From IMG/VR virus record IMGVR_UViG_3300005764_000008, positions 1 through 41,221 of that record: a stretch of DNA of 41,221 bases. The stretch is one strand, 5' to 3'. This DNA comes from a virus. The position numbers and the translations under genes are program-made. The notes beneath the pieces were generated by a model. That model ran no database searches. It was not told where the DNA came from and saw nothing but the letters and a program-made list of their open reading frames with translations. Positions 1 to 41,221 of this stretch are shown one piece after another. Position 1 is the first letter of the stretch. The number at the start of each line of letters is the position of its first letter.

Positions 1-80
1 GCGTCGTGCTGGCGTCGATGCCGCCCGAAGGCATGCTGTTCCACGACATGGCCGCGAAAGGCATTCAAGGACGGCTCGCG
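1..80. repeat. Terminal direct repeat, copy 1 (identical to 41142..41221). It is either a circular-assembly overlap or a terminal redundancy.
   Basis: Bases 1-80 match 41142-41221 letter for letter. The helicase reading frame passes through the junction without a stop. Confidence 0.95.
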
Positions 81-2049: not shown

Positions 2050-2228
2050 CCACGATCGTCGTCTGTCCCCGCTGCGGCGTCGAATCGCTCCGCACCGCGA
2101 CGAATCATCGCAAGGTGCTGTGCCGGCATGAATTTCATGATCCGGAAGATTGCGGTGTGTGCGGCTGGTGCCGGACGGGGACGCCATGGCCACCGAAGGA
2201 TGATGATGCCACTCCCGCTCGCGATTGA
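2046..2228 (+). CDS. Small Cys-rich (Zn-ribbon-like) protein
   Basis: ATGA overlap with the methyltransferase stop. Contains CPRCG ... CRHEFH ... CGVCGWC. The 3' end overlaps the start of the next gene. Confidence 0.45.
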   Translation: MTTIVVCPRCGVESLRTATNHRKVLCRHEFHDPEDCGVCGWCRTGTPWPPKDDDATPARD

Positions 2229-2904
2229 TTTGTTCTGTGGTCTTGGAGGCTGGACGGAAGGCTTGCTCGCGGAAGGCTGGCGTGTCGCCGGCTTCGATAT
2301 CGAACGGCATGTCTATGGCCAGGCTAGGTATCCCGCGCAACTGGTGCTGCAAGACGTGCTGACGATGCACGGCTCGCAGTTCGCGTCAGCGGATCTGATC
2401 GTCGCTTCGCCGCCGTGCCAGGCGTATTCGTATCGGGCGATGCCGTGGAAGCGGGCGAAGGCGTTGCCACCACCGGATAATGCGCTGTTTAACGCGTGCT
2501 TTCGGATTCAGCGGGAAGCGATTGAGGCGGCGAATCGGTTTATTCCGCTCGTCGTCGAGAACGTGCGCGGGGCGCAGCCGTATGTCGGGCGGGCACGGTG
2601 GCATTTCGGCAGCTTCTATCTGTGGGGGGATGTGCCGGCGTTAATGCCGCCAGTTCGAGCTCGGAAGAATAATGGCGGCTCATGGTTCGCCATTGCGCAC
2701 AATACAACGAGTGGACATGGGCGGAATCCCGATGGGCGTAAGGCTCCTAGCGGAACGCAATGGTTTAACGATGGGCCGCGAACGTCAGACAGTCTCGCCA
2801 GCATGGGCGGCAAGTCTCATGCTCGCAAAGCCGCCTCCGCCCACATCGCGAAGATTCCCACCGTGCTCGCGCGGCACATTGCACGCGCATGGTATCCATG
2901 CTGA
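2200..2904 (+). CDS. DNA (cytosine-5) methyltransferase, compact phage type
   Basis: Motif I DLFCGLGG, motif IV ASPPCQAYS and motif VI VVENV. The ATG triplet run at 2200-2208 is preceded by GAAGG. The longer 2128 start looks unlikely. Confidence 0.85.
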   Translation: MMMPLPLAIDLFCGLGGWTEGLLAEGWRVAGFDIERHVYGQARYPAQLVLQDVLTMHGSQFASADLIVASPPCQAYSYRAMPWKRAKALPPPDNALFNACFRIQREAIEAANRFIPLVVENVRGAQPYVGRARWHFGSFYLWGDVPALMPPVRARKNNGGSWFAIAHNTTSGHGRNPDGRKAPSGTQWFNDGPRTSDSLASMGGKSHARKAASAHIAKIPTVLARHIARAWYPC

Positions 2905-9072: not shown

Positions 9073-11490
9073 ATGCCGAATCTCCGCGAACGTCCCGCGC
9101 GTCGCCTCGGTCCCAGAGACCCGTCGCTGTCGACGTCGGCGGACGAGCAGCCGGACGATCAAACGCCAGCCCCCGGCGACGCGAAGAAACGCACGCGGAA
9201 AGAACTCCACGCGTTTCTCGAGCAGGCGCGCGACCTATTCAAGCAGGGCCAGGACGCGACGAAGGACCAGATCGAACGCGAACTCAGCGACATTCGATTT
9301 TACAACGGCGAGCAGTGGCCGAATGATGTCTTCACGGCACGAAAAGGCCAGAATGCCAGCAATGGCATGCCGCCCGTGCCGGCGCGCCCGTGCATCACGG
9401 TCAATAAGACGCGCGAACCTGTGCGGCAGGTGCTCAATCAAGAGCGGCAGAGCGATGTCGGCATTGAGCTCGTGCCGGCCGATGACTTCGGCGATCTTGG
9501 CATTACCATCGACGACAGCGAAGTGACGCTCCGTGAAGATCTGGTCCGGCGCATTCAGCGCGAATCGGAAGCGAGTGATGCCCGCACGTGGGCGTTCTCG
9601 CGCGCGGTGCAGGCGGGACGTGGATTCTACATCGTGCGGACGCGGTATCTGGACGGCCCGACGCGCGACCAGGAAGTCTATGTCGCGCGGATTTACAACC
9701 AGGCGAGCGTGACGCTCGATCCGGCGCATGAACAGCCAGATGGATCCGACGCCGAATGGGGCTTCATCGGCACCGACATGCCGTGGAATCAGTATCAGGC
9801 GGAGTTTCCGAAGGCCGCGAACGGCCAAAAGAATTCGGTGCTTGTGGCGGATGATACTGAATTCCGCGGTCTTGGCGAGAAGTATCCGGAGTGGTTCAAA
9901 GTCACCGGTAAGCAGCGCAGTTGCCGTGTGGTCGAGTATTTCTACACCGAACGCACGACGCGCACGCTGGCGATGCTGAGCGATGGCCGCGATGTCTACG
10001 AGGACGAACTCAGCGACAAGGATCGAGAAGAAAAGTATGACACGCGCGAGGTCGTGACGAAGACAATCCAGTGGGCGAAAATCGACGCCACGCAGATTCT
10101 CGACGAGACGGAATGGCCGGGCCAATACATCCCGATTATCAAAGTGCTCGGCGAAGAACTCCATCCGCACGATGCCGAACGCCGCTCAGAGGGCATGGTG
10201 CGCCCGATGCGCGGACCGGGCCGAGGGTTCAACTACATGGTCTCGAAGTGGGTCGAGACAATTGCGCTCAGTCCGATTCCGCCGCTGATGGTGGCGGAGG
10301 GCCAGATCGAAGGCTACGAGCCGTGGTATCAGGCGGCGAACACGCGGACGCTACCCTATCTGCCGTTCAAGCAGCGCGACCTCGAAGGCAATCCCGCGGG
10401 ACCGCCCAGTGCGCCAGCGCGCGACCTCGGGTCCGTCATCGGCCCGCTGTCGCTCTCGGTGCAGATGTTCGCGGAGGCGATTCAGAGCGTCTCGGCGACA
10501 CACGATCCGTCGCTCGGGAAAGATGCGCCGAACGCGAAGAGCGGGCGGGCGATCAAGGCGCTGCAGGATCAGAGCACGCTGGCGACGTCAAACTATCAGG
10601 ACAATCTGATGCGCTCGATGCGGTATGAGGCGCGCATCATCAACGATTTGCTGTATCCGATTTACGGACGACCTGGTAGGATTGCGCGGCTATTGAACAA
10701 ACAGGGCGAACCGTCGGCGGTGATGCTCCATCGGCCGATGGTGCGCGGGGCGAACGGACGGCCGCAGGCGGCGCAGCCGGGCCAGGACGGTGCCGAGACG
10801 TTCACGCTGACGAAGGATGCGCGGTTCGATGTTGCGGTCAAGGTGACGCGCGCCTACGATACGCGGGCGCAAGAGGAGATGGCGCTCGTCGGGGATCTCA
10901 TCGCGAACGAACCGCAGCTGATGACATGGTTCGGGGATCTGTATTTCAAGAACATGGACGGGCCGGGTCACGCCGAGATGGCGGATCGCGCAAAAGCGAT
11001 GCTCGCGCAGCCGGTGCAAGCGATGTTGAACGCCAAGCAACAAGGGCAGCCGACCCCCGCGCAGCTGCAGCAACTCCAGACCGAAAATCAGCAGATGCAG
11101 CAGCAACTGCAGCAGGCCGCGCAGCAGATTCAGCAGGAGACGGCGAAGTATCAGGCGCAGGCGCAGATCGAACGGTTCAAAGCTGATGCGAATGCCTCGC
11201 TACAAATCACGCTGAAACAGATGGACACGGCCGCGAAGGTAGAAGTTGCGCGTATTACCGCCGCGAAGCAGACCGCGGACCTTCAGGCGGAACTTGCCGA
11301 AGAGCGCATCGCACTCCATGCCGAACAGGCCCACGAGATGGGCATGGCGGCGATGGACCAGTCGCACGAGCAGCAGATGGGGCAACAGCAGGCGCAGCAG
11401 GCGCAGGATCAGCAGGCGCAAGCGGCACAGCAGCAACAGGCCGCGCAGCAACAAGCGGCGGCGGCGCAGCAACAGCCGCAGCCGACGTAA
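9073..11490 (+). CDS. Portal protein (P22-type) with a long Q-rich helical C-terminal extension
   Basis: DIRFYNGEQW ... RPCITVNKTREPVRQVLNQERQ ... IELVPAD matches the portal N-terminal pattern. Size (805 aa) and position fit. The last ~150 aa are Q/A-rich. Confidence 0.85.
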   Translation: MPNLRERPARRLGPRDPSLSTSADEQPDDQTPAPGDAKKRTRKELHAFLEQARDLFKQGQDATKDQIERELSDIRFYNGEQWPNDVFTARKGQNASNGMPPVPARPCITVNKTREPVRQVLNQERQSDVGIELVPADDFGDLGITIDDSEVTLREDLVRRIQRESEASDARTWAFSRAVQAGRGFYIVRTRYLDGPTRDQEVYVARIYNQASVTLDPAHEQPDGSDAEWGFIGTDMPWNQYQAEFPKAANGQKNSVLVADDTEFRGLGEKYPEWFKVTGKQRSCRVVEYFYTERTTRTLAMLSDGRDVYEDELSDKDREEKYDTREVVTKTIQWAKIDATQILDETEWPGQYIPIIKVLGEELHPHDAERRSEGMVRPMRGPGRGFNYMVSKWVETIALSPIPPLMVAEGQIEGYEPWYQAANTRTLPYLPFKQRDLEGNPAGPPSAPARDLGSVIGPLSLSVQMFAEAIQSVSATHDPSLGKDAPNAKSGRAIKALQDQSTLATSNYQDNLMRSMRYEARIINDLLYPIYGRPGRIARLLNKQGEPSAVMLHRPMVRGANGRPQAAQPGQDGAETFTLTKDARFDVAVKVTRAYDTRAQEEMALVGDLIANEPQLMTWFGDLYFKNMDGPGHAEMADRAKAMLAQPVQAMLNAKQQGQPTPAQLQQLQTENQQMQQQLQQAAQQIQQETAKYQAQAQIERFKADANASLQITLKQMDTAAKVEVARITAAKQTADLQAELAEERIALHAEQAHEMGMAAMDQSHEQQMGQQQAQQAQDQQAQAAQQQQAAQQQAAAAQQQPQPT

Positions 11491-33829: not shown

Positions 33830-34009
33830 TCACAGAAACGTCGCCAGCAGCACGCCGAACCAGAGCGCCACGACCAGAATCAGCATGGCGAATCCAGCCA
33901 ATTGCGGCCCGAAGTCGTAATCGCCTTCCTGTTTCACGCGCGTGGCGGCATAGATGGAGAGCAGCGTCACGAGGACTGCCACCGTCCAGCGGTTAATTGG
34001 CAAGGTCAT
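33830..34009 (-). CDS. Small two-TM membrane protein
   Basis: Translation is MTLPINRWTVAVLVTLLSIYAATRV...LAGFAMLILVVALWFGVLLATFL. The ATG overlaps the upstream stop. Confidence 0.5.
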   Translation of the reverse strand: MTLPINRWTVAVLVTLLSIYAATRVKQEGDYDFGPQLAGFAMLILVVALWFGVLLATFL

Positions 34010-34191
34010 GGCTTCGGTGTCCCTTCGGCGTAGGCGGCGAGGAGGGCGGCGAGCTCCTTGGCGCAAATACGCACCCAATCACCACAAGTTTGCTCGCCAG
34101 CGTCATAATCAATGCGTTTCGCAGCCGATTCCCATTGCTTAATCAACCGATGGATCCCTTCCACGAGCGAGAACGACGGCTGGTCAGGCAT
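34006..34191 (-). CDS. Small hypothetical protein
   Basis: 61-aa ORF that begins immediately after the stop of the repeat protein. Confidence 0.5.
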   Translation of the reverse strand: MPDQPSFSLVEGIHRLIKQWESAAKRIDYDAGEQTCGDWVRICAKELAALLAAYAEGTPKP

Positions 34192-35760
34192 TTACGTCTC
34201 CACCTGTGGCGCATACTCGGCTGGCATCATCCCGAACGACCACGCCACCGCGTCATGTGCCGTCGGCATTGTCGGCGGCACCCGCAGCATGTAGTGCTTG
34301 AACGACCCGTCGGCCTCTGGCGTGCTATTGCGCACCTTCACCATCACCAGCGGCTCGTCGCCCTCAAGTTCCACGCGGTAGAGCGTGCCGAACGCGTCCG
34401 CGGAGATTGGAGTCGCTCCGCTGTCCGCAAAAAACCGCTCAAAGCCGTAGCGCTCGAGCATGACCCGCCGCACTTCGGCATTCGCTTCCTGCTGAATCTG
34501 CCCGACCGTGAGTCGCTCCGGATGGAGGATGAGCCACGCGGGTACGCGCGTGCCGTGCCACGCCCACAGCGCGGTGCCATCGCGCCAGGCGCAGAAGGGA
34601 CCGTCTTCGCAGTGTGGTCGGTTTTGCGCATCCACCATGAGTCGCACGGGCCGGTCGCTCACCATACAAAATTTTTCGTGCATGATGCGCGGGCCGCCAT
34701 GCTGGGCCGCAGCTTCGTAGTGCTGCCACTTGGAATACTCCAGATCGAGATGGGCAACATGGCGAAAGAAGGACAAGAAGGCTGGCGCACCGGACCATTG
34801 GTTGCCACCATCCCACATGTTATAAGCATGTGAAGCGCAGTCGAGAAGGAAGGTTACGTTGGCTGGAGCGAACGCGGCGGCGATGCTTCGCATGTCGGCG
34901 GGAGAGATTCCGCTAAACCAATCGCTCAGCGTTGGATTGAAAGCATCCCTCGTCGCGGCCCGCGTCGCGTCACTCGTCGCGTCCCACGTCGCGGCCCTCG
35001 TTGCGTCCCACGTTGCGTCCCACGTTGCGTTCCCCGTCGCGTCACTCGTCGCGTCCCCCGTCGCGTCCCCCGTCGCGGCCATCGTCGCGGCCCGCGTCGC
35101 GTTCCCCGTCCCGGCCAACGTCGCGTCCCACGTCGCGGCCTCCGTCGCGGCCCACGTCGCGTCCGTCGTCGCGTCCCTCGTCCCGGCCAACGTCGCGGCC
35201 CACGTCGCGGCCGTCGTCGCGTCCCTCGTCCCGGCCCGCGTCGCGTCACTCGTCGCGTCCCGCGTCGCGTTCCCCGTCCCGGCCATCGTCGCGGCCCGCG
35301 TCGCGTTCCCCGTCCCGGCCAACGTCGCGGCCCACGTCGCGGCCTCCGTCGCGTCCCACGTCGCGTCCCCCGTCGCGGCCATCGTCGCGGCCCGCGTCGC
35401 GTTCCCCGTCCCGGCCAACGTCGCGGCCCACGTCGCGGTCTCCGTCGCGTCCATCGTCGCGGCCCGCGTCGCGTCACTCGTCGCATCCCTCGTCGGACAC
35501 TTGTTCGAGAGATGCCACAGCCCAGCCGCAAAGCCGCCGGCAAACCGCAAGACAAACGGCGACGGCACGAACACGATGCGAGCGTCAGGCGGCGGTTCCA
35601 GCTTCGCCGCCCGATACAATCCACGAACTGCCACGCGCATCGCCTCGCGATCGGTCTCCATCATTGGCGCCGTGCTCATCGCATTCGCAATCCAACGCTG
35701 CGCCCACGGCTCTAATTGCGCGCGATGCTCAGGCGTCAGTTCATACTTTTTCTTGGTCAT
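34192..35760 (-). CDS. Tetrapeptide-repeat protein: N-domain + ~45 x (x-x-A-T) + conserved C-domain of unknown function (DUF6745-like from memory)
   Basis: Residues 91-270 form an unbroken 4-aa repeat. The C-domain contains WHGTRVPAWLI...QQEANAEVRRVMLERYGFERF. The N-domain contains LEPWAQRWIANAMSTAP...IVFVPSPF. Confidence 0.8.
   Translation of the reverse strand: MTKKKYELTPEHRAQLEPWAQRWIANAMSTAPMMETDREAMRVAVRGLYRAAKLEPPPDARIVFVPSPFVLRFAGGFAAGLWHLSNKCPTRDATSDATRAATMDATETATWAATLAGTGNATRAATMAATGDATWDATEAATWAATLAGTGNATRAATMAGTGNATRDATSDATRAGTRDATTAATWAATLAGTRDATTDATWAATEAATWDATLAGTGNATRAATMAATGDATGDATSDATGNATWDATWDATRAATWDATSDATRAATRDAFNPTLSDWFSGISPADMRSIAAAFAPANVTFLLDCASHAYNMWDGGNQWSGAPAFLSFFRHVAHLDLEYSKWQHYEAAAQHGGPRIMHEKFCMVSDRPVRLMVDAQNRPHCEDGPFCAWRDGTALWAWHGTRVPAWLILHPERLTVGQIQQEANAEVRRVMLERYGFERFFADSGATPISADAFGTLYRVELEGDEPLVMVKVRNSTPEADGSFKHYMLRVPPTMPTAHDAVAWSFGMMPAEYAPQVET
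34939..35490 (-). repeat. 12-nt tandem repeat array (~46 units) lying in frame within the coding sequence
   Basis: On the coding strand each unit is NNN-GNC-GCG-ACG. Near-identical 72-nt higher-order blocks recur. Every listed alternative frame across it is open, which is an artefact of the periodicity. Confidence 0.9.
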
Positions 35761-35766
35761 GAGTGT

Positions 35767-36105
35767 TCAGTCCTGCACGTTGCGAATCGCCTCGGGCGTA
35801 TATTCCCGCTGGCGAATCACTTCAAACGTCCCGATCGGCAAGCCGATACGGCCATGTTCCTCATGCACGAGGGCGGCAGGCCGCGAGACGACCAGCAAGC
35901 GCGTCCCGTCCGGCTCCTGGAAGAGTTGCATGGCTGGCACCGGATCGGCGTTGTCGACGGCGGCGATGACCTCGTGTGCATGGCCTGTGACTTCGCCATA
36001 GGCGAGAATCACGCGGCCTGCGTCCGTCACCGTCTTTGCTTGCGCACTCGGCTGCTTTGTCGTCGCGCGAATCGCCACATCGCCTTGTCGCCAGATGCTG
36101 TTCAT
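35767..36105 (-). CDS. Hypothetical conserved phage protein (small beta-barrel/cupin-like pattern)
   Basis: GAGGAG lies 7 nt upstream of ATG 36105. Contains GDVAI...RVILAYGEVTGHAHE...LVHEEHGRIGLPIGTFEVIRQREY. Confidence 0.65.
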   Translation of the reverse strand: MNSIWRQGDVAIRATTKQPSAQAKTVTDAGRVILAYGEVTGHAHEVIAAVDNADPVPAMQLFQEPDGTRLLVVSRPAALVHEEHGRIGLPIGTFEVIRQREYTPEAIRNVQD

Positions 36106-36107
36106 AA

Positions 36108-36485
36108 TTACCACTCCTCTTTGCTCTGTATTTGTGGTTGCCGTGTTGGAGTCGCGCCGCTCCGAATCCGCGCCGCCCAGCCACGTGCCCGCTGCGCATC
36201 CAGCAGATTGTAGGTCTGTTTCTTCGCGTCTTCTTCCTTTGAGGCAAAATAATCGAACCGTTCCGCAAGCAGGTCCAGATATTCCGCAGGGCACTCGCTG
36301 AAGTGCCGCCCTTTCATCGGCTCGCCATGCCAGTCGCGCGGGTCTTTCTGGCGCACGGTCGGATCGCCGTATTTCCCGTCGAGGTCGACCGCCGAGGGTG
36401 CAGTTGACGTCGGCTTACGGCGCGCTTCCATCCGCTTCAGCGTGGCGTCGATGGAGCGGAGGATATCGATGACTTCGGCATTCAT
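36108..36485 (-). CDS. Hypothetical conserved phage protein
   Basis: ATG 36485 makes an ATGA overlap with the exonuclease stop (alternative ATG at 36491). Contains DLDGKYGDPTVRQKDPRDWHGEPMKGRHFSECPAEYLDLLA. Confidence 0.6.
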   Translation of the reverse strand: MNAEVIDILRSIDATLKRMEARRKPTSTAPSAVDLDGKYGDPTVRQKDPRDWHGEPMKGRHFSECPAEYLDLLAERFDYFASKEEDAKKQTYNLLDAQRARGWAARIRSGATPTRQPQIQSKEEW

Positions 36486-37045
36486 CGGCATATTTCCTCC
36501 CACACACGTGCACAGAGGCGTGCATCTGCCAAGGCGCCATGAGCACCGTCAATTGATAAGCCGAAATGTTTCGCCACAGTGCTTAGCTTATAATTCAACG
36601 GCTTCGCGGGTGTCTTGTCGAAGTAAAACAAAACCGCCTGCAATACATCCCGCCAGAGCATCTCGCACGGCATGAACGTCGTCTCACCGAACATCGTCTT
36701 GACCCGCGGCTGGTCGAACGGCACGTTGTAGGCGAACATGCGCGCCACGTCATATGAGCGACCCGTGCGCTTCGATACCATCGGCACCGCACGATACGGC
36801 TGCAACCACTGCGCGAACTGTCGCGCTGCGACATCAGGCCACACCGCTTCACGCCAGCGCTCTGGATCGTAGTGATTCAGCTTCAGCGCTTCCGGATCGC
36901 ATTTGTCCGGATCGAACACAATGCACTGCTCGAACGACGCGAGTTCAACGCGCGTCCCCGAATCGACGGCGACGGCGCCGAGTTCGATCGTTGGATGGTG
37001 CGGCTCGGTGCCGCCGGTTTCGGTGTCGAGATAAATCACAGTCAC
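36482..37045 (-). CDS. DnaQ-like 3'-5' exonuclease (DEDDh)
   Basis: Exo I YLDTETGG, Exo II AYNVPFDQ and Exo III HGALADARL. Confidence 0.85.
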   Translation of the reverse strand: MTVIYLDTETGGTEPHHPTIELGAVAVDSGTRVELASFEQCIVFDPDKCDPEALKLNHYDPERWREAVWPDVAARQFAQWLQPYRAVPMVSKRTGRSYDVARMFAYNVPFDQPRVKTMFGETTFMPCEMLWRDVLQAVLFYFDKTPAKPLNYKLSTVAKHFGLSIDGAHGALADARLCARVWEEICR

Positions 37046-37048
37046 TAG

Positions 37049-38521
37049 CTACTCCATCTCCTCAGGTGCATACAGCCCCGACACGACATCCGGATACACC
37101 AGCCGCGCCAGCTTCGACGACGCCCGAGCCACGCACATGTCGGCCGGATTCTTGCGCCAGCCCGACCGCTGCCAGCGCTTGTCGGATTCGGGGTCGTTTT
37201 CGATGTAGCCGAACGCGCGACGGCCTTCCTCGACCGTGAACGACAGCCGCATCTCCGGATCGTTACCGCGTTGCGTGGCGAAGGTTGCCCGCGTGTCGGT
37301 CCGCTCGATGCAGCGGAAATACCGCGCTTTGCCTGACGTCAGCACGAGCGATTGAATCGTCCCGGCCGAAAGCGTCGGCTTACCTTCGATGATGTGAAAC
37401 GCCCGAAGCGCGGCCATTGCCGGAATGCCGAGTTCCCGACCGGCCAGCACCGTCGCGAGGACCGCTTGCGGCGTGCCGTAGGCGGCAAAGAGGCGCGAAT
37501 CAAACATCCGCTGCGCCAGCTTGACGGCTTCGTCCATGTTGCGCGGCTCAAGCTGCTGCGTGTAGTCGACTGGGATGAGTTGTCCCGAAGTCCCCTCGTT
37601 CGGGACCGACGAGTGAAGATCGCCCGCGGCTGGCGCAACAGCCTGCCCGCCGGAAGGCATCGGCGGTTCGGGCGACGGGAGCGGAGTCGGATCCGGTTCT
37701 GGGTCAGCCATCGGCGCTACGGTGCGCTCGACGGCAATCTCGGCGAACGGAATCGGCGCGTCGGCCTTCAGCGTGACCAGCTGTCGCGTCAGCGGCCAGC
37801 GGTCACGGAATTCCATCAGCGCCGTTCGGCGCGCGGGCGTGACGCCTGGCACGACGCCGTTCTTCATCTTGGCATAGAGCGCGTCCAGCGAGCCGTGCTC
37901 TTTCAGCAGCTGCGCCGCAATCACGCCGCCGATGCCTTTCGCGCCATCGATGTTATCGCTCGTGTCGCCGACGAGGCAGAGATAGTCGATGAACTGCGCC
38001 GCAGTGATGCCGAACTTAGCGGTGACGGCCTCGGCGTCGAAGGTATCGCCGTTCGTCAGCTTCTTGACCCGCACACGGTCGTTCACGAGCTGCAGGAGGT
38101 CTTTATCGGCGCTCGCAATCAGCACCGTCGTGCCGTCAATCGCCAGCGCTTCTTTCGTCGCCGTCGCGATAATGTCGTCGGCCTCGTAGCCCAGCGATGA
38201 CCAGATCGCGAAGCCGTCGGCTTTCAACGTCTCGCACGCCAGCCGAATCTGATGGAGCAACGGCTCGAGCTTCTCCGGCCGGTTCGCCTTGTAGCCGCGG
38301 TATTTCCCATCGCCGATCGCTTCGCGCGGGCTGAGATCGTGACGGAAGGACTTCCCACTGTCGCAGCAGATCGCCGCGTGCGCGTGGTCGGCGGCGAGCG
38401 TGCGCACGCGTGTAATCGTCTGGCGGCTGACGTAATCCTGGTCGGGCTCGTTGCCGGACATATGCCAGATGGGATAGGCCAGCGAACTGAGGTCAATCAA
38501 GAGAAGTTCAGTCGTATTCAT
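37049..38521 (-). CDS. 5'-3' exonuclease (FEN / Pol I N-terminal type) fused via a Pro-rich linker to a RecT-like annealase-type C-domain (C-domain call tentative)
   Basis: FEN motifs: LLIDLSSLAY, CCDSGKSFRHD...YKANR, YEADDIIAT, ASADKDLLQLV and LVGDTSDNIDGAKGIGG. Linker PEPDPTPLPSPEPPMP. C-domain GIPAMAALRAFHIIEGKPTLS...NPADMCVARASSKLARLVYPDVVSGLY. Confidence 0.8.
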   Translation of the reverse strand: MNTTELLLIDLSSLAYPIWHMSGNEPDQDYVSRQTITRVRTLAADHAHAAICCDSGKSFRHDLSPREAIGDGKYRGYKANRPEKLEPLLHQIRLACETLKADGFAIWSSLGYEADDIIATATKEALAIDGTTVLIASADKDLLQLVNDRVRVKKLTNGDTFDAEAVTAKFGITAAQFIDYLCLVGDTSDNIDGAKGIGGVIAAQLLKEHGSLDALYAKMKNGVVPGVTPARRTALMEFRDRWPLTRQLVTLKADAPIPFAEIAVERTVAPMADPEPDPTPLPSPEPPMPSGGQAVAPAAGDLHSSVPNEGTSGQLIPVDYTQQLEPRNMDEAVKLAQRMFDSRLFAAYGTPQAVLATVLAGRELGIPAMAALRAFHIIEGKPTLSAGTIQSLVLTSGKARYFRCIERTDTRATFATQRGNDPEMRLSFTVEEGRRAFGYIENDPESDKRWQRSGWRKNPADMCVARASSKLARLVYPDVVSGLYAPEEME

Positions 38522-40424: not shown

Positions 40425-41221
40425 GCTACGCCGCGTTCCTCGAGTCGAAGAAACGCGTCTATGCCGGCGACGGACTCCGCTCAGGCATCGTGCTGCCGCC
40501 GCAACTCTACGACTGGCAAGCGGCGATCGTGCGCTGGGCCCTGCGCAAAGGACGCTCCGCCATTTTCGCGGATTGCGGCCTCGGGAAATCGTTCATGCAG
40601 ATCGCATGGGCCGATGCGCTGCGCGTGCCGACGCTGATGCTCGCCCCGCTCTGTGTCGCCGAGCAGACGGTTGATGAAGCGCGGAAACTCGGCATCGATC
40701 TGGCCTACGCCGAAGGGCCGCATGCGATCCGCGGACGGCTCACGATTACGAATTACGAGCGGCTCGATCGCTTCGACCCATCAAAATTCGAGGCCGTTGT
40801 GCTCGACGAATCATCTATCCTGAAAGCCTTCGACGGCAAGACACGCACCGCGCTCATCAAAGCCTTCGGTGCGACACGCTATCGGCTCTGCTGCACCGCC
40901 ACACCGTCTCCAAACGACATCGCCGAACTCGCGAATCATGCCGAGTTCCTCGGGCTGATGACGCGACAGGAATTTCTCGCGACATGGTTCGTCCATGACG
41001 ACGAAGGCTGGCGCATGAAGAAACACGCGCGCGGCCCGTTCTTCCGTTGGCTGGCGTCATGGGCGATGACACTCCGCACACCATCAGACCTCGGCTACAG
41101 CGATGACGGCTATCTCCTGCCGCCGTTGAATGTCACCGATTGCGTCGTGCTGGCGTCGATGCCGCCCGAAGGCATGCTGTTCCACGACATGGCCGCGAAA
41201 GGCATTCAAGGACGGCTCGCG
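40421..41221 (+). CDS. SNF2/Rad54-like helicase, N-terminal part (runs off the window and continues at 3..1007)
   Basis: YDWQ, Walker A FADCGLGKS, motif II VVLDESSILK and motif III CCTATPSPND. There is no stop before the window end. Confidence 0.85.
   Translation, partial: MSYAAFLESKKRVYAGDGLRSGIVLPPQLYDWQAAIVRWALRKGRSAIFADCGLGKSFMQIAWADALRVPTLMLAPLCVAEQTVDEARKLGIDLAYAEGPHAIRGRLTITNYERLDRFDPSKFEAVVLDESSILKAFDGKTRTALIKAFGATRYRLCCTATPSPNDIAELANHAEFLGLMTRQEFLATWFVHDDEGWRMKKHARGPFFRWLASWAMTLRTPSDLGYSDDGYLLPPLNVTDCVVLASMPPEGMLFHDMAAKGIQGRLA
41142..41221. repeat. Terminal direct repeat, copy 2 (identical to 1..80)
   Basis: Exact 80-nt identity with the window start. Confidence 0.95.

Follow-up and report, generated by a model that had tools for sequence, protein, structure and literature searches.

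The window analysed here is the whole of the IMG/VR virus record IMGVR_UViG_3300005764_000008, a stretch of 41,221 nt that represents a phage genome. On its minus strand it carries a gene for a 522-aa protein whose middle part is a perfect tetrapeptide array and whose C-terminus belongs to the Pfam family DUF6745. Directly upstream of this repeat gene lies a gene for a small partner protein. The locus comprises the following features:

34192-35760, minus strand: repeat-protein gene, complete, 522 aa, with ATG start and stop codon at 34192-34194 (open reading frame (ORF) listing, Pfam, homologues)
35491-35760, minus strand: N-terminal conserved domain, aa 1-90, with the motifs RWIANAMST.PM and VFVPSPFV.RFAGGFAA
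34951-35490, minus strand: tetrapeptide array of 45 12-nt units, aa 91-270, x-x-[A/G]-T
34195-34950, minus strand: C-terminal conserved region, aa 271-522, with the Pfam DUF6745 match at aa 347-522 (34195-34722)
35179-35436, minus strand: interval in which a 228-nt (19-unit) segment is missing in P0001, the best database match; the junction is ambiguous within a 30-nt stretch (ATWAATLAGT)
35767-36105, minus strand: partner gene, 112 aa, His-rich, phrog_27831 (function unknown), directly upstream of the repeat gene

Residues 91-270 of the repeat protein form exactly 45 uninterrupted tetrapeptides in register, and on this point the ORF listing and the splitting into units agree with a preliminary description made from the DNA letters. 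All 45 units have T at position 4, whereas A occupies position 3 in 39 units and G in the remaining 6. The first two positions draw on small residue sets, namely A21, D18, N5, and T1 at position 2 and R11, W9, G8, S4, M4, L4, E3, and T2 at position 1 (n = 45 each), again as described before. Tandem Repeats Finder reported a 12-nt period with 45.8 copies (score 503) at 34946-35495 and, for the same interval, a 96-nt super-period with 5.6 copies (score 579); no other large tandem array was found in the window with this program. The 12-nt period was thus recovered, but GCGACG, which had been said to recur in every unit, is present in 36 of the 45 units, with GGGACG in six and GCAACG in three. The unit consensus is N[G/T/A/C]G G[A/C]C G[C/G]G ACG, whereby the four third-codon positions are nearly uniform (G 41/45, C 44/45, G 42/45, and G 45/45), nucleotide 1 uses all four bases (A14, T13, G11, C7), and nucleotide 5 is either A (23) or C (22). 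The GC content is 77.8% in the array compared to 62.4% in the window, and the array is mildly acidic with a net charge of -10 over 180 aa. The count of 45 units is that of one metagenome assembly, and another assembly of this gene contains 26, so that a collapse or expansion of the array is possible. Additional long ORFs of 232-380 aa run over the array in other frames or on the opposite strand (34859-36001 and 35001-35762 on the plus strand, 34926-35624 on the minus strand), with translations such as VASLVASH..., SRPTSRPS..., and RRGPRRWPG...; since the repeat is free of stops, these ORFs are regarded as by-products and not as genes.

The C-terminal region matches DUF6745 (PF20530) with 179.9 bits against a gathering cut-off of 27 (E = 5e-53, aa 347-522 to model positions 31-206), which bears out the family assignment of the preliminary description. 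The proposed architecture of a globular N-domain, an array, and a DUF6745 C-domain is likewise supported. Phage and cellular homologues share the conserved N-domain, in which D, Y, P, and SP are invariant, and the C-region carries the family-wide motifs [ST][DE]RP, R.H, GP..[FYW]RDG, [WI]HG..VP, and N.E.RR. A word-indexed search yielded at least 779 full-length homologues of the same three-part architecture with lengths of 353-699 aa, and an exhaustive phmmer search with the C-domain alone yielded 8,582 clusters of 50% identity at E ≤ 1e-3 and 5,454 at E ≤ 1e-10. The PHROG match of the repeat protein is a family of unknown function, the NCBIfam and PHROGs searches were uninformative on function, and in the literature searched there was neither a description of the function of DUF6745 nor any mention of this family.

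Array-bearing family members occur in phages of Proteobacteria, Actinobacteria, Chloroflexi, Verrucomicrobia, and others. The comparison of repeat counts in relatives, which had been proposed, gave 3 to more than 80 units for the phage and prophage arrays of the sequences in hand, with alleles that differ in number. In the 117 closest proteins, with 3,209 units altogether, A occupies position 3 in 98% of the units and T position 4 in 85%, position 2 is most often A (44%) or D (30%), and position 1 is R in 24%, D in 13%, T in 11%, Y in 10%, S in 7%, and W in 6%. The fixed residue pair varies by lineage (AT, SV, QV, QL, NL, SSL, AV), whereby positions 1-2 share a small alphabet, often W/R/G x D/A. 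For example, gp38 of the Mycobacterium abscessus prophage prophiGD102-1 has [G/R/W][D/G]QL units and a Manatee Spring siphovirus has [E/G/R/W]SSL units, and x-x-S-V, x-x-Q-V, x-x-N-L, x-x-A-V, and x-Q-A-T units are found on contigs from many phyla. Relatives with x-x-S-V arrays, which the preliminary description had mentioned, are indeed present (L028, L029, L034).

In natural populations the variation is restricted to the array. The best database match, P0001, is the window protein minus a clean deletion of 76 aa (19 units) and is otherwise identical; both proteins share a common prefix of 118 aa and a common suffix of 338 aa, and the junction is a 10-aa identical stretch. Within one cluster of 90% identity the full-length alleles have 356, 360, 368, 372, and 372 aa, and in a second such cluster they have 365, 373, and 377 aa, whereby the length differences lie in the array. 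Likewise, the array is the sole difference between P0003, P0266, and P0008 (471, 486, and 408 aa). In clusters other than that of the window the alleles differ by 1-4 units. At the DNA level, five near-identical contigs from five samples of the 356-372-aa cluster were compared over 2,319 columns, i.e., 1,200 nt of upstream sequence plus the gene. Here, 54 columns vary, 53 of which are located in the array of about 85 nt and none upstream. In one pair of alleles with the same length, the only differences across the 2,319 nt are five nucleotide changes in two adjacent units, and this clustering points to a replacement of units by recombination rather than to point mutation. Since the arrays of these contigs (48-96 nt) are shorter than a sequencing read, assembly collapse cannot explain their variation. 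The exact 19-unit deletion allele, the alleles differing by 1-4 units, and the 53 of 54 variable columns thus agree with the unequal recombination and length variability that had been predicted from recurring blocks within the array.

What is conserved in these arrays is the protein and not the DNA. The Ala-Thr pair is encoded by GCG-ACG, GCA-ACG, GCC-ACC, GCT-ACC, GCA-ACA, or other codon pairs, depending on the lineage. Inside each array one codon pair is used for the fixed residues, and this pair changes between arrays while the residues remain A-T. Thus, the DNA motif is not the conserved entity. Over 31 arrays the mean entropy amounts to 1.24 bits at nucleotide 1, 0.68 bits at nucleotide 2, 0.44 bits at nucleotide 4, and 0.90 bits at nucleotide 5, compared to 0.14-0.24 bits at the third-codon positions and at most 0.15 bits at nucleotides 7-12. 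In many arrays the unit comes down to [T/C/G]GG G[A/C]C with six further bases that do not vary, which translates into W/R/G x D/A, and this alphabet is seen with AT, SV, QV, NL, and QL as fixed pairs. That the units stay heterogeneous despite homogenised synonymous sites, and that the same alphabet recurs in independent lineages, is not expected from neutral slippage. Selection therefore acts at the protein level.

The repeat gene is accompanied by a conserved partner. In the window, the stop codon of the partner gene precedes the ATG of the repeat gene by 6 nt, and the protein (MNSIWRQGDV...GEVTGHAHEV...HEEH...QREYTPEAIRNVQD) belongs to a family with the invariant residues R-x-G-D-V, L-A, E-x-x-G-H-x-H, a later H, Q, and V-x-D. 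When all loci were searched with a profile, the partner was detected in 75 out of 91, in each case on the strand of the DUF6745 gene; with respect to the 81 loci with enough flanking sequence, the window included, it is adjacent in 75. In about 60 loci it directly precedes the DUF6745 gene, and in about 13 it directly follows it. Examples of the downstream order are L004, L012, L014, L015, L017, L018, L020, L025, L032, and L040, in which strand and adjacency are kept. The two genes stay adjacent even where their order is swapped, which argues for a two-component unit. Among the 16 loci that lack the partner, 10 have no flanking sequence and the other six are all of Obscuribacterales type. These six metagenome-assembled genome contigs (L022, L041, L048, L049, L055, and L060) have ample flanks and no detectable partner, and the middle region of the Obscuribacterales-type DUF6745 proteins shows degenerate W-x-N-L motifs. 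At least 3,311 homologues of the partner were found, none of which has a Pfam domain, and the partner had no match in NCBIfam or the Protein Data Bank (PDB).

AlphaFold2 was run with the window protein together with 117 homologues (predicted template modelling score 0.65) and with a homologue of nine units (0.76). For the window protein, the predicted local distance difference test (pLDDT) score exceeds 90 for aa 1-86 and 275-521, with ranges of 84-98 for the N-domain (aa 1-90) and 89-97 for the C-terminal region (aa 271-522), and the array is predicted as helices with a pLDDT of 37-71. The nine-unit homologue gave the same picture, namely confident N- and C-domains and an array pLDDT of 41-47. 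When the position-1 residues of neighbouring units are compared with shuffles within the arrays, R-R (z = -5.1) and aromatic-aromatic pairs (z = -3.1) are depleted, and pairs of opposite charge are enriched (z about +4). This pattern is weakly compatible with i/i+4 contacts along the ridge of a helix; the evidence is weak since duplicated blocks are not independent. An autocorrelation of the 3,209 units showed no clear lag for a longer structural period, i.e., aromatic or charged residues every 3, 4, or 9 units as a sign of a solenoid.

Homologues without an array are found in cellular genomes. In Actinoplanes, Micromonospora, and related genomes the DUF6745 gene and its partner are chromosomal and partly syntenic, and there is no array; such loci include L039, L061, L083, L084, and about 35 other Actinoplanes/Micromonospora loci. 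The middle segment of these cellular proteins is non-repetitive and comprises about 100-150 aa with period-4 vestiges such as RLRSRLGEDL. The neighbouring genes, of radical-SAM, sulfatase-like, and ATP-grasp type, lie on the opposite strand, and the Actinoplanes gene neighbourhood gave no functional clue. Array-bearing copies in cultured bacteria are located in mobile contexts. In Paraburkholderia nemoris, for instance, the gene is flanked by RecT/exonuclease genes and an integrase. As cellular copies lack the array and array-bearing bacterial copies reside in mobile contexts, perfect arrays represent an expansion, confined to phages and prophages, of a pre-existing feature of the family. An array-less member is also known from the Microcystis phage Ma-LMM01 (L086), in which gp175 (partner homologue) and gp174 (DUF6745, no array) lie directly upstream of a uracil-DNA glycosylase gene.

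On the plus strand, the window encodes helicases, two DNA methyltransferases, a primase/helicase, the large terminase, a P22-like portal, the major capsid protein, and a head-closure protein. The repeat gene belongs to a minus-strand block at 33-40.7 kb, which consists of small ORFs and two nuclease genes:

36482-37045, minus strand: RNase T-like 3'-5' exonuclease, in the same minus-strand block, upstream of the repeat gene
37049-38521, minus strand: 5'-3' exonuclease fused to a RecT-like annealing domain, in the same minus-strand block

The latter is a single ORF of 490 aa with a 5'-3' (FEN-type) exonuclease at aa 5-260 and a RecT-like single-strand annealing domain at aa 326-490, so that exonuclease and annealase form one fused gene instead of the usual two. 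The 9-kb contig of P0001 has the same neighbour genes as the window repeat gene, and the Paraburkholderia prophage copy is adjoined by RecT and an exonuclease. The early, recombination-gene context that had been noticed before is thus confirmed. A comparable position, in an early block beside exonuclease/RecT genes, is occupied by gam in lambda and by abc in P22. Downstream of the repeat gene, a 61-aa ORF (34006-34191) is not conserved beside the homologues. Window positions 1-80 are exactly repeated at 41142-41221, which indicates a circularly closed (or terminally redundant) assembly and a complete genome of about 41,141 bp; the contig derives from a JGI metagenome, and no relatives of the window at the nucleotide level were found in the phage collection. 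Elsewhere in the genome, two adjacent DNA methyltransferase-like genes (1168-2049 and 2128-2904, plus strand) are located beside helicase genes, and this pair at 1168-2904 might protect the phage's own DNA from restriction. Short imperfect tandem repeats of 15, 18, and 24 nt, which are Q/A-rich, occur at the 3' end of the portal gene (11382-11479, plus strand).

For the interpretation of the array there is a precedent in mycobacteriophage Tweety. Its gp54 contains 48 copies of AA[G/W/Q][S/Y], encoded by 12-bp units with invariant third-codon positions and a GC-rich core, whereby Che8 gp57 has 26 and PMC gp51 15 copies, and the authors read the repeat pattern as selection for variation (PMC2884959). 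Tweety mutants that escape on lysogens with the (p)ppGpp-synthetase-like Phrann gp29/gp30 defence have more or fewer gp54 repeats, and such repeat changes tune the counter-defence to the Phrann or MichelleMyBell system by an unknown mechanism, an account that we take from two reviews by the same laboratory (PMC9262239, PMC8549241). This precedent, the adjacent partner gene, and the array-less cellular homologues had not been noticed in the preliminary description. With these data, we tentatively propose, at somewhat less than even confidence, that the locus is an early two-gene module whose large subunit has a role in recognition or counter-defence that is tuned by recombination. The repeat protein would be the large subunit and the small His-rich protein encoded at 35767-36105 the other one. 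In phages and prophages, an expansion of the family's period-4 segment would have given rise to a perfect tandem array with a 12-nt unit, which probably forms a helical, recombination-tuned surface or spacer of the large subunit. Most likely, the two fixed residues, here A-T, would form the constant side of an alpha-helical stalk and the two variable residues (W/R/G/S/M/L/E/T and A/D/N) an exposed variable ridge. Unequal recombination and gene conversion would add, delete, and reshuffle units at a far higher rate than that of point mutation elsewhere in the genome, possibly helped by the phage's own neighbouring RecT/exonuclease genes, and selection would keep the units heterogeneous. The most likely function would then be as for Tweety gp54, i.e., an early-made protein that binds or neutralises a variable host or prophage immunity component, whereby array length and sequence would set the match to the target and escape variants would arise at high frequency.

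Several observations weigh against this proposal. There is no homology link to any defence or anti-defence protein, and a PADLOC-DB search with the full protein, its C-domain, and its N-domain gave no match at E ≤ 1. Given the low AlphaFold2 confidence (37-71 and 41-47), the array may be disordered. A Foldseek search against the PDB with both models gave no match (best E 0.56-0.89), a BFVD fold search returned only other DUF6745 proteins, and a PDB profile search retrieved only designed helical repeats, via the low-complexity array. Tweety gp54 has no Pfam domain, hence no DUF6745, and no partner gene was found in the 10-kb Tweety region, so that, with flanks that are not homologous either, the functional analogy is founded on the array. 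The array-less homologues keep the partner, which argues for a core function of the module that does not need hypervariability. Moreover, two temperate elements carry the module at a distance of 1.4-1.5 kb from the integrase, a position that is also typical of prophage defence genes. The anti-defence role suggested in the preliminary description is supported by analogy to Tweety gp54 only, whose flanks are not homologous to those of the window protein.

This location near the integrase would also fit a module that acts as a sensor or defence system in superinfection exclusion or inter-phage competition, with the array recognising rival-phage proteins and DUF6745 or the partner as effector. We consider this rather unlikely. 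The evolutionary regime is that of the recognition domains of fungal NOD-like receptor (NLR)-like proteins with WD repeats (PMC1805685, PMC2873952), and the chromosomal homologues in actinomycetes would be in line with a defence function, but exactly these homologues are without arrays. The missing PADLOC match counts here as well, domain and fold searches recognised no effector-like domain, and in the window phage as well as in L001, L002, and L087-L091 the gene stands amid early replication and recombination genes on contigs of apparently lytic type. It could also be that both proteins form a conventional biochemical pair, e.g., a metal-dependent enzyme and its partner, in which the array is a tolerated slippage-prone or disordered linker with near-neutral variation. 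Such a pair would account for the conservation of array-less homologues together with the partner, for the invariant polar residues of the large protein ([DE]RP, R.H, and HG) and of the partner (GH.H and H.EH), for the low pLDDT of the array, and for the tolerance of any copy number from 3 to more than 80. However, slippage and concerted evolution should homogenise the units, yet their heterogeneity is maintained. The W/R/G x D/A alphabet on different fixed pairs in independent lineages, the near absence of variation at synonymous sites, the non-random charge and aromatic patterns between neighbouring units, and the retention of A-T across codon changes do not fit a neutral linker either, so that this explanation, too, appears improbable to us. 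A bolder version of the proposed recognition role is quite doubtful at present, namely that the array is a programmable recognition polymer, i.e., a two-position W/R/G x D/A alphabet on a helical scaffold that is frequently rewritten by recombination and that, together with the partner, would allow phages of many bacterial phyla a rapidly evolvable binding of variable host or rival-phage proteins. Each of the W/R/G x D/A states is one nucleotide change from others. If true, this polymer would be a general viral counterpart of repeat-based immune receptors, with Tweety gp54 as a convergent or distantly related instance.

Some pentapeptide-repeat proteins act as DNA mimics, and the preliminary description had raised a nucleic-acid mimic for the array of the window protein as well. 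An Ocr-, ArdA-, or pentapeptide-repeat-like decoy for DNA-binding defence enzymes would be in line with the frequent acidic residues at position 2 (D 30%), the periodic structure, and the early-gene context. However, the net charge is only -10 per 180 residues and Arg is the commonest residue at position 1 (24%), the fixed pair varies between lineages, SSL or QL lineages carry few acidic residues, the period is 4 with no pentapeptide-repeat match in Pfam, and the fold searches gave no similarity to known mimics. We thus regard a mimic as very improbable, and this part of the earlier suggestion is not upheld. Even less credible is that the 12-nt repeats constitute a DNA-level element (iterons, an origin, or a packaging or regulatory site) or an assembly artefact, so that the protein repeat would be incidental. 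The perfect tandem DNA repeat with its 96-nt super-period and the disagreement in copy number between the two assemblies of the same gene might be explained in this way. As a family-wide explanation, a DNA-level function was rejected since codons differ between lineages while residues are conserved. Besides, the reading frame is always preserved, the arrays differ between otherwise identical genomes, unlike arrays of binding sites, and the window contains no second copy of the array or template repeat. With respect to an artefact, arrays of 48-96 nt vary likewise, which rules out collapse as a general cause. A mutagenesis of the diversity-generating retroelement type was also considered and rejected, as the array has no template copy, the variation is not adenine-specific (nucleotide 1 uses four bases), and the pattern is tandem. 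Only chance matches of 17-25 nt at E ≥ 0.07 were obtained in the search for a second array copy in the window, and no reverse transcriptase was found among the 30 window ORFs scanned in a non-exhaustive scan. Overall, both a DNA-level element or artefact and a diversity-generating retroelement are largely excluded.

Among known systems, Tweety gp54 is closest to the window protein at the level of the array. Both proteins have a central tetrapeptide array of 12-bp units with two fixed and two variable residues and an NGG codon at a variable position (G/W/Q in gp54, W/R/G in the window). Third-codon positions are invariant in both, as seen in the entropy profiles of the window, Tweety, and the 31 further arrays. 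Furthermore, both arrays are GC-rich, differ in copy number between close relatives, and are part of an early non-structural gene. On the other hand, the fixed pair is A-A in gp54 and A-T in the window protein, and the C-terminal flank comprises about 45 aa in gp54 compared to a domain of 250 aa. Homology of the flanks was tested with the family profile and rejected (hhalign probability of 32.5% over 18 columns), and a tblastn search of the phage collection with the window protein did not retrieve Tweety. Thus, as far as can be judged from the sequence, the window protein is like gp54 in every feature of the array and is not a member of the gp54 family; tuned counter-defence is demonstrated for Tweety only.

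Homology of both the N- and the C-domain, together with the same adjacent partner, is shared with the DUF6745 proteins of Ma-LMM01 (gp174), Actinoplanes, and Micromonospora, whereas these cellular and cyanophage members have a non-repetitive or vestigial period-4 middle of about 100-150 aa instead of a perfect array. Another phage gene with a variable number of repeats is bbp36 of the Bordetella phages BMP-1/BPP-1, a non-essential gene whose variable region 2 is an in-frame tandem repeat with 9-20 copies between isolates (PMC2884959). Set against the window protein by description only, it differs by its 24-bp unit (19-bp repeat plus 5-bp spacer), and its function is unknown. The pentapeptide-repeat proteins Qnr and MfpA also have a short-period tandem repeat with fixed and variable positions, but their period is 5 and their fold a quadrilateral beta-helix, whereas the window array has period 4 and is predicted by AlphaFold2 as helix and not as beta-solenoid. 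In agreement with the preliminary description, which had set the array apart from this class, there was no Pfam match of the window protein to pentapeptide families (PF00805 and related) at E ≤ 1. The evolutionary regime is shared with the het genes of fungi that encode NLR-like proteins (HNWD family of Podospora), in which near-identical WD repeats with few hypervariable positions create recognition diversity by repeat gain, loss, and shuffling (PMC1805685, PMC2873952). These are 42-residue WD40 repeats of eukaryotic cell-death receptors, however, without any sequence or structural relationship to the window protein.

The type of array is thus already known from one phage, and the window protein is a new and far more widespread variant of it. 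Tweety gp54 has so far been an isolated case of repeat-tuned counter-defence, and here the same repeat logic occurs on an unrelated, very large family. The size of this family and the natural hypervariation restricted to its arrays suggest that repeat-tuned recognition may be a general strategy of phages. Beyond what gp54 offers, the family would provide new handles on such a strategy, namely a conserved partner, array-less cellular homologues as natural controls, and an engineerable two-position alphabet, and the proposed module would give DUF6745 a first testable role.

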